From assembly GCF_003018255.1 (NCBI RefSeq), contig NZ_CP027440.1: a stretch of 64,000 nt of DNA, one strand, 5' to 3'. The notes beneath the pieces were generated by a model, which had not been told where the DNA came from, did no database searches, and saw only the letters and a list, made by a program, of their open reading frames with translations. The position numbers and the translations under genes are program-made. Positions 6,568 through 8,525 of the stretch are shown here, piece by piece. The DNA comes from Escherichia coli. GTDB taxonomy: Bacteria; Pseudomonadota; Gammaproteobacteria; Enterobacterales; Enterobacteriaceae. Every line of letters begins with the position of its first letter. Within the stretch, counting starts at the first letter, position 1.

Positions 6568-7467
6568 ATGAAACCCGACGCACACCAGGTTAAACAGTTT
6601 CTGCTCAACCTTCAGGATACAATTTGTCAGCAGTTGAGCGCCGTCGATGGCACAGAATTTGTCGAAGATAGCTGGCAGCGCGAAGCTGGCGGCGGCGGAC
6701 GTAGCCGGGTGTTGCGTAATGGTGGTGTTTTCGAACAGGCGGGTGTCAACTTTTCACATGTCCACGGTGAGGCGATGCCTGCTTCCGCCACCGCTCATCG
6801 CCCGGAACTTGCCGGGCGCAGTTTCGAGGCGATGGGCGTTTCACTGGTAGTGCATCCGCATAATCCGTATGTTCCCACCAGCCACGCGAATGTGCGCTTT
6901 TTTATTGCCGAAAAACCGGGTGCCGAACCCGTCTGGTGGTTTGGCGGCGGCTTCGACTTAACCCCTTTCTATGGTTTTGAAGACGATGCTATTCACTGGC
7001 ACCGCACCGCCCGTGACCTGTGCCTGCCATTTGGCGAAGACGTTTATCCGCGTTACAAAAAGTGGTGCGACGACTACTTCTACCTCAAACATCGTAACGA
7101 ACAACGCGGCATTGGCGGGCTGTTCTTTGATGATCTGAACACGCCAGATTTCGACCACTGTTTTGCCTTTATGCAGGCGGTAGGCAAAGGCTACACCGAC
7201 GCTTATTTACCAATTGTAGAGCGACGTAAAACGATGGCCTACGGCGAGCGCGAGCGCAATTTCCAGTTATATCGTCGCGGTCGTTATGTCGAGTTCAATC
7301 TGGTCTGGGATCGTGGCACACTGTTTGGCCTGCAAACCGGCGGGCGCACCGAGTCTATCCTGATGTCAATGCCGCCGCTGGTACGCTGGGAGTATGATTA
7401 TCAGCCAGAAGATGGCAGCCCGGAAGCGGCGTTAAGTGAGTTTATTAAGGTCAGGGATTGGGTGTAA
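6568..7467 (+). CDS. hemF: oxygen-dependent coproporphyrinogen III oxidase
   Basis: ORF 6565..7467; ATG at 6568 gives 299 aa ([13 protein letters not shown]...); starts 3 nt after amiA stop. Confidence 0.93.
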
Positions 7468-8525
7468 CTCCCTCCCCCCCATTCCCGCATCCGCTGATGC
7501 AGCGTCAGTGACGGCTTCTCGGCAAACAGCTGCTGGTAATCCGTGGCGAATTGCCCCAGATGCCAGAATCCCCACTGCATGGCGGCGTCTTTTACCGTTG
7601 TGCTTTGCGACCAAGGGCTTATCAGTTCGCGGCGTACGGCGTTCAGGCGAATGCGTTTCAGCCACGCGTTTGGGCCAATGCCTAAAATAGCGTGAAACGC
7701 GTTTTGTAGCGTGCGGCGGCTGACATGCAGTTGATTACACAAGTCCAGCACCGTCACTGGTTCGGACATGTTTTCCAGCACATATTCACGGGCGCGGGAA
7801 AGCAATCGACGGTAACTCTGATGACTGATGCTTTCCGCCGTCACCATTGGCTGCGCTTCTTCCAGCATCGCCCCCATCGCCATTAGCAAATTATCCCCCA
7901 GCACTTTTCGCACTGCAGGCTGATGGAGATTTTCCGGGTTTTCGCAAAACGTCGCCAGCGCCTGTTGGACAAAGCCCCACAGAGCGGCTTTATGCTGCTC
8001 TTTCACTTCCAACGCCGACTGGCTACGCAGCATATGTAATACCCGATCCGGATTATGCAAAAAGTTAGCCTGACGAGTGATGACATCTTCAGAAAGCACT
8101 ACGCCAAGGATCGTGTAATCGTCCGGCGTACTTAATTCAAACTCGGTTCCACCGGGGCGCGTCGCTATTTCTGCGCTTCCCAGACATTGCGAACCGATAA
8201 ATCCCTGCTCACCGCGCGTCGCCGGAATGCCAAACCAGAACGAGTTCGGCCAGACCAGGCACGACTGGCGCAGCGCCAGACCGGTGTATTCACGGAAAAC
8301 CTGAATATCATCGAGTAGAATTTCCGTAAATTCACCATGAAACTTGCCCGGATGCAGCTGATCGTAAATCTGCTGCCAGGCGGTAATTGTCAAAGCATGT
8401 TCATAGACATCCGTTGTCTGTCGTTGATGAACATTATCCACTTCGACCTTCGGCGTGAGCTTCAGGTTTTCGGGTAAGGGTTCATGATAAAGATGGTGCA
8501 AATTGGCTGTACGGGTCTTTTTCAT
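7401..8525 (-). CDS. eutR: AraC-family transcriptional activator of the eut operon; ORF is 24 codons longer than the 350-aa length I recall and overlaps hemF 3' end
   Basis: 374-aa ORF; AraC HTH in C-terminal part; last gene of eut cluster; upstream in-frame stop fixes start at 8525. Confidence 0.85.

Follow-up and report, generated by a model that had tools for sequence, protein, structure and literature searches.

The eutR gene in the Escherichia coli DNA studied here, a stretch of 64,000 nucleotides referred to below as the window, is read past the end expected for its product and runs into the convergent hemF gene. The locus raises the question of whether this long reading frame is an error of sequencing, a symptom of a decaying eut operon, the result of selection for a longer protein, or an inherited variant of little consequence. 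The features on which the answer depends are, in window coordinates:

6568..7467, plus strand: hemF (oxygen-dependent coproporphyrinogen oxidase), with the RefSeq-style start at 6568
7401..8525, minus strand: eutR open reading frame, 374 codons plus a TGA stop at 7401..7403
7476..8525, minus strand: canonical core of EutR, codons 1-350 (NCBIfam NF007522, Pfam HTH_18, pN/pS 0-0.03)
7473..7475, minus strand: codon 351, GGA (Gly) in the window, where K-12 and about 99% of complete E. coli genomes have a TGA stop
7404..7475, minus strand: 24-codon extension, antisense to the final 21 hemF codons, the hemF stop and a 5-nt spacer
7401..7467, both strands: overlap of the convergent eutR and hemF frames, 67 nt
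7468..7480, letters of the plus strand: C-rich tract ctccctccccccc, with a C7 run at 7474..7480

In an ungapped alignment of the window, K-12 and the closest complete genome, the causal SNP is window position 7475, where the plus strand carries C instead of the ancestral A that is found in K-12. The plus-strand triplet 7473..7475 is TCC in the window and TCA in K-12, corresponding to a change from TGA to GGA on the eutR strand. There the ancestral GGGGG-T-GAGGGAG has become GGGGGGGAGGGAG, and the G5 run has become a G7 run. The C-rich tract is equally long in the window and in K-12, without any indel; because the change is a substitution, the extension of eutR is not an error of homopolymer length. 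The single substitution at 7475 is the sole cause of the lengthening. It is located 8 nt beyond the stop of hemF, which is therefore unaffected.

A sequence-only reading of this DNA had described the eutR frame as 374 aa at 7401..8525 on the minus strand, extending 24 codons past the expected end and overlapping the 3' end of hemF by 67 nt. All of its coordinates are correct, including the overlap at 7401..7467. The length of 350 aa that it gave for the EutR of K-12, and with it the count of 24 extra codons, agrees with the eutR gene of K-12 MG1655, which has 1,053 nt (350 codons plus the stop) and is separated from the hemF stop by a 5-nt spacer. The triplet tcc at 7473..7475 had been noted as one substitution away from tca, and TCA is exactly what K-12 has at this site. 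The alignment with K-12 eutR that the same reading had proposed reveals one A/C difference at the stop, K-12 itself being without the long form.

A T-to-G transversion on the coding strand (A to C on the plus strand, 7475) has thus converted the TGA at codon 351 into GGA. Translation runs on for 24 codons, crossing the 5-nt spacer and entering the 3' end of hemF in antisense, up to the TGA at 7401..7403. The product is a normal EutR, the AraC-family activator of eut, with an additional C-terminal tail whose sequence is dictated by hemF and not by selection on EutR.

The core of the protein is that of a typical EutR. Residues 1-350 match positions 1-350 of the 350-position NCBIfam equivalog profile NF007522 with 789.7 bits (cutoff 319). 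Residues 262-341 match Pfam PF12833 (HTH_18; E = 2e-19), and there is a match to PF00165 (HTH_AraC) too. In an AlphaFold2 model based on an alignment of 25 sequences (pTM 0.78) the pLDDT of the core is about 90, and the AraC-type double helix-turn-helix region is helical with pLDDT values of 85-97. In the comparison of the 350-codon core with six other lineages 17-37 synonymous and 0-3.5 non-synonymous differences were counted (pN/pS 0-0.03), a pattern which indicates that the EutR core is under purifying selection. A canonical EutR is about 350 aa long and ends directly after ...REWG or an equivalent; the protein of the window has 374 aa, with a sense codon at position 351. This length is an allele-level departure and no ground for excluding the protein from the EutR family.

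The tail has different properties. It lies beyond the family model, whose match stops at residue 350. Residues 351-374 have pLDDT values below 50 in the same model, which makes disorder their most likely state. Across genera from Salmonella to Pseudomonas, EutR orthologues measure 343-357 aa, the end of the protein is conserved in other genera, and none of the orthologues in other genera aligns past 94% of the query, i.e. into the tail. The variants of the tail, PSSG, PSFG and PASG, follow amino acid polymorphisms of hemF. Judging only by the spread of the allele and its persistence, which extends to several successful clones, the tail is probably close to neutral in function. The sequence G GGG GGA was considered as a -1 frameshift site from the letters only and dropped, because a shift at this place would change nothing except the unselected tail.

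Among the public EutR proteins a 359-aa cluster (P0016) was examined as a further C-terminal variant and rejected; its length is due to an upstream start call and its end is ...REWG. The 90% protein cluster of EutR also lists a 295-aa EutC and a 467-aa EutA, and some proteins named EutR measure 427-573 aa and include Pfam domains of EutB or EutC (P0017, P0018, P0023, P0044). These cluster-bridging EutR/EutB/EutC proteins are probably fused gene calls or deletions.

The C allele at 7475 was counted in 5,426 complete E. coli genomes with two queries in blastn mode. The first, of 52 nt around the SNP, matched exactly and over its full length in 19 of them; with the second, of 32 nt, which is less sensitive to neighbouring polymorphism, exact matches show the allele in at least 35 of the 5,426. 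Haplotypes were compared for 22 carriers and eight stop-bearing references over the 1,958-bp hemF-eutR region. The C allele occurs on at least five well-separated haplotypes:

Window/JNE: 18 differences overall from the stop-bearing DETEC-S792, with 6958..8075 identical except for 7475
K-12-like (J31, PK5, 2017.03.02CC): identical to K-12 at the other 1,957 positions, the private C of K-12 at 7482 being kept
O111/B1-like (SF4-1, FWSEC0005, HCP6S3_I1): identical to the stop-bearing O111:H8 strain 05-3004, with near variants in ten genomes
O157:H7 (PV15-279, F3113, ECP19-798): zero or one other difference from the stop-bearing F1273
O139:H1/MS14384/746: a fifth background with the C allele, the comparisons with stop-bearing genomes covering the other four

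Three of these haplotypes equal stop-bearing ones at all, or all but one, of the other positions among the 1,958. Three complete O157:H7 genomes carry the C allele, and PV15-279 differs from F1273 at one other site. Import by recombination was considered for the K-12-like carriers and rejected, as these have kept the private C of K-12 only 7 nt away from the SNP. The occurrence of the C allele on separate haplotypes that match stop-bearing partners indicates independent de novo mutations and not a single allele spread by recombination. On this haplotype evidence, the loss of the eutR stop by TGA to GGA is recurrent in E. coli, with at least five independent origins. Four of the 374-aa EutR proteins are found on 663, 712, 159 and 92 contigs, respectively (WP_001520986.1, of the O139:H1 haplotype, is left out of this count), numbers which mirror clonal expansion and sampling and not independent events.

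The residue that replaces the stop was surveyed by protein look-ups on the two commonest backbones, B1 and O157-type. Glycine at position 351 was found on 712 contigs with the B1 backbone and on 159 with the O157-type backbone. The corresponding numbers are 10 and 0 for arginine, 8 and 0 for leucine, 3 and 0 for tryptophan, 1 and 1 for cysteine, and 0 and 0 for serine. Loss of the eutR stop is tolerated in general, yet the T-to-G transversion outnumbers the normally commoner transitions. The dominance of glycine fits an effect of the sequence context and fits selection for the extension poorly; since the contig counts are inflated by clonal expansion, the bias is suggestive and not proof. The T lies between a G5 run and a further G, where a substitution by transient misalignment would merge the runs into G7. 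The context GGGGG-T-G is the most likely reason for the recurrence, with such misalignment as the putative hotspot mechanism.

A genuine, inherited, near-neutral and recurrent stop-loss allele of eutR is very probably the best explanation of the long reading frame. The recurrence of TGA to GGA could instead reflect selection, the extension having been favoured repeatedly through the stability or activity of EutR or the fate of the eutR mRNA. We regard this as unlikely, although at least five independent origins, each seen in tens to hundreds of assemblies, would be in keeping with it, as would the habitats of the carriers: in a raw tally, about 20 of the 35 complete genomes with the C allele are of animal origin, from livestock or otherwise (swine, cattle, wild boar, goose, gull, dog and flies). 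Against it, transitions from TGA to CGA or TGG should be common if the extension were selected, and they are seen on only 10 and 3 contigs compared with 712 for GGA; this rarity points to mutational bias rather than selection. In addition, the sequence of the tail tracks hemF and shows no conservation of its own, and the C allele is present in less than 1% of complete genomes.

A further point in favour of selection acting on the extension is that the stability of the eutR mRNA is controlled by the small RNA MavR, which by pairing within the 3' portion of the coding sequence shields the mRNA from RNase E (PMC8565329). In the long allele 72 nt of the usual 3' UTR are now translated. It is speculation that 72 nt more of translation could in principle alter the fate of the eutR mRNA. 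In EHEC a C-terminally Myc-His-tagged EutR accumulates, an observation of accumulation only and not of activity (PMC8565329). The paper on Salmonella EutR worked with MBP fusions and, for complementation, with an untagged clone, and is silent on the tolerance of C-terminal tags. A search for intrinsic terminators at the hemF/eutR junction found none, so an overlap of the convergent transcripts must be common to all E. coli, the longer translated span being the only novelty; for the same reason disruption of a terminator was rejected as an effect of the stop loss. A literature search for eutR together with hemF found no paper on the stop-loss allele.

EutR regulates virulence genes in EHEC. It is doubtful, though conceivable, that parallel evolution acts at the eutR stop codon, GGA being favoured time and again, for example in animal-associated E. 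coli, to tune the abundance or activity of EutR; if true, ethanolamine sensing and EutR-dependent virulence regulation would be tuned in this way. In a weaker version, GGGGG-T-G may be a strong context-driven transversion hotspot and a natural reporter of misalignment mutagenesis.

The near-neutral stop-loss allele has also to be weighed against relaxed selection on the eut genes. In the window the gene order on the minus strand is eutS-P-Q-T-D-M-N-E-J-G-H-A-B-C-L-K-R, with hemF convergent; eutR comes last, distal to the eutS...eutK cluster and downstream of eutK. None of the 17 eut ORFs is missing, and 16 have their full length. The altered one is eutB (ORF 10647..12023, minus strand), in which a C has been inserted relative to E. 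coli JNE23-011 (CCC to CCCC at 10687..10690). The insertion replaces the last eight residues of EutB and adds five, giving 458 aa compared with the normal 453 and a new stop 6 nt from the start of eutC. The exact 458-aa EutB is found on six contigs, three independent SRA assemblies included, and the insertion is for this reason real and not a homopolymer miscall. It is absent from the JNE genomes that already have the long eutR, which makes it a later, separate event confined to a subclade.

That the stop loss of eutR and the frameshift of eutB are both symptoms of incipient pseudogenisation of the eut genes is quite unlikely. Besides the eutB insertion itself, two observations could be read in this sense. 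In L031 (SRR13450396_109), a close relative of the window, a 19-bp deletion splits eutH (locus 61-1306) into ORFs of 304 aa and 98 aa. The goose isolate E. coli FG92-1, a K-12-like carrier of the stop loss, has a nonsense codon at eutR position 108 as well (locus 1172-2296, a RefSeq pseudogene with an internal stop). In a decaying operon several disrupted eut genes and/or a raised dN/dS would be expected; here the remaining 15 eut ORFs have their full length, the eutB change is limited to the last eight residues at the extreme C-terminus, and the eutR core has the low pN/pS given above. The window differs from JNE23-011 by four synonymous substitutions, one non-synonymous (EutG I215T) and one intergenic, and in JNE23-011 the same eutR allele stands beside a fully intact eut operon. 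The stop loss is moreover found in O157:H7, O111 and K-12-like backgrounds in which eutR is otherwise unchanged. The sequence-only reading had offered relaxed selection on eut as one explanation and had linked the eutR and eutB lesions; the first does not agree with the low pN/pS, the full-length eut ORFs, the intact operon of JNE23-011 and the recurrence with a normal eutR, and the link is contradicted by the allele-bearing sister genomes without the eutB insertion. Mild erosion of eut may nevertheless be under way in the small subclade of the window, as represented by the eutB frameshift and the eutH deletion of the relative.

Some further features of the operon were recorded. The eutH-eutG intergenic region (14692-14976) contains a REP/BIME-like tandem array, in which a 100-bp unit is present in 2.8 copies with 98% matching and within which the short-read Logan contigs stop. 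Codon 215 of eutG (window 15522) is Thr in the window and Ile in JNE23-011; the JNE EutG accession, WP_456290634.1, is very recent, which points to the JNE allele as the derived one. At the eutA/eutB junction (12023-12035) eutA directly adjoins eutB in the window. K-12 carries the CPZ-55 prophage between these two genes, so the lineage of the window would have the uninterrupted operon.

The authenticity of the long eutR allele is supported by several independent sources. JNE23-011 and JNE112863, both complete genomes from Japan and of human origin, carry it, with 99.9-100% identity to the window over the 1,958-bp hemF-eutR region. In JNE23-011 the identical eutR CDS is annotated in RefSeq as WP_001561822.1 with 374 aa and no pseudogene flag, and over 25 kb the window differs from this genome by one indel and six substitutions. 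The two JNE genomes are the only complete E. coli genomes to reach at least 99.9% over hemF-eutR, the next-best having 99.1% over this region and about 98% over 25 kb; few complete E. coli genomes belong to the lineage of the window. The Logan assemblies SRR13450396, ERR3653869 and SRR7947255, from unrelated SRA runs, are 99.8-100% identical to the window and contain the stop-loss motif. The exact 374-aa EutR of the window is present on 663 contigs of the public protein collection; it is already catalogued in public databases and is not new. One C-allele haplotype is shared, together with one distinctive amiA allele, by five strains of US, Canadian and Japanese origin.

The long eutR allele is real and heritable, and an assembly artefact is effectively excluded: that a systematic miscall in the C-rich tract gave a false C at 7475, as base 7475 lying within a C/G-rich quasi-homopolymer and the scattered, low-frequency occurrence of the C allele in unrelated lineages might suggest, is extremely improbable, since the change is a substitution that leaves the length unaltered, recurs in both complete sister genomes and in each of the three independent SRA assemblies, is shared inside clonal groups such as the five strains just mentioned, and yields exact 374-aa proteins on 92-712 contigs from many sources, the 663 contigs of the window protein among them. 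The systematic homopolymer error proposed by the sequence-only reading is contradicted by the same observations.

The long eutR is an ordinary stop-loss polymorphism of a well-known regulator, and its parallel origin is the only mildly notable aspect. The value of the case lies mainly in quality control: where a gene overruns its usual end within a homopolymer-like tract, a true allele that is already catalogued may be the reason. Annotators should take the long eutR neither for an error or a pseudogene nor for a sign of operon decay. At least five origins of one stop-codon transversion make a tidy case of context-dependent recurrent mutation, and EutR tolerates a C-terminal tail of 24 residues, at least evolutionarily.

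Compared with K-12 EutR (WP_000753690.1, 350 aa, AraC/XylS family), residues 1-350 of the window protein are collinear, with three amino acid differences. Both belong to the NCBIfam equivalog with HTH_18/HTH_AraC domains, and in both genomes eutR is the last eut gene and convergent with hemF. The two differ at the end of the gene, where K-12 has TGA at codon 351 followed by the 5-nt spacer, whereas the window has GGA, 24 extra residues and the 67-nt overlap with hemF. The closest counterpart is WP_001561822.1 of JNE23-011 and its relatives, whose CDS is identical to the window eutR at the DNA level, the eutB insertion of the window being absent from JNE23-011. Parallel 374-aa alleles are WP_000753711.1 (O157:H7), WP_001392454.1 (O111 and other B1-like strains), WP_001469063.1 (K-12-like) and WP_001520986.1 (O139:H1, MS14384). 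In all of them a change of the same nucleotide has turned TGA into GGA, and the frame runs on for the same 24 codons to the stop that is also used in the window. These alleles show 40-78 differences from the window in the 1,958 bp, and because of polymorphisms in hemF their tails end in SFG or ASG, in contrast to SSG in the window.

Stop-loss polymorphisms in bacteria arise by point mutation of the stop codon, with translation continuing to the next in-frame stop and producing an unselected tail. The eutR allele differs from stop loss in general in two respects: its tail is antisense to a convergent gene of an essential pathway, and the same mutation recurs in several lineages.
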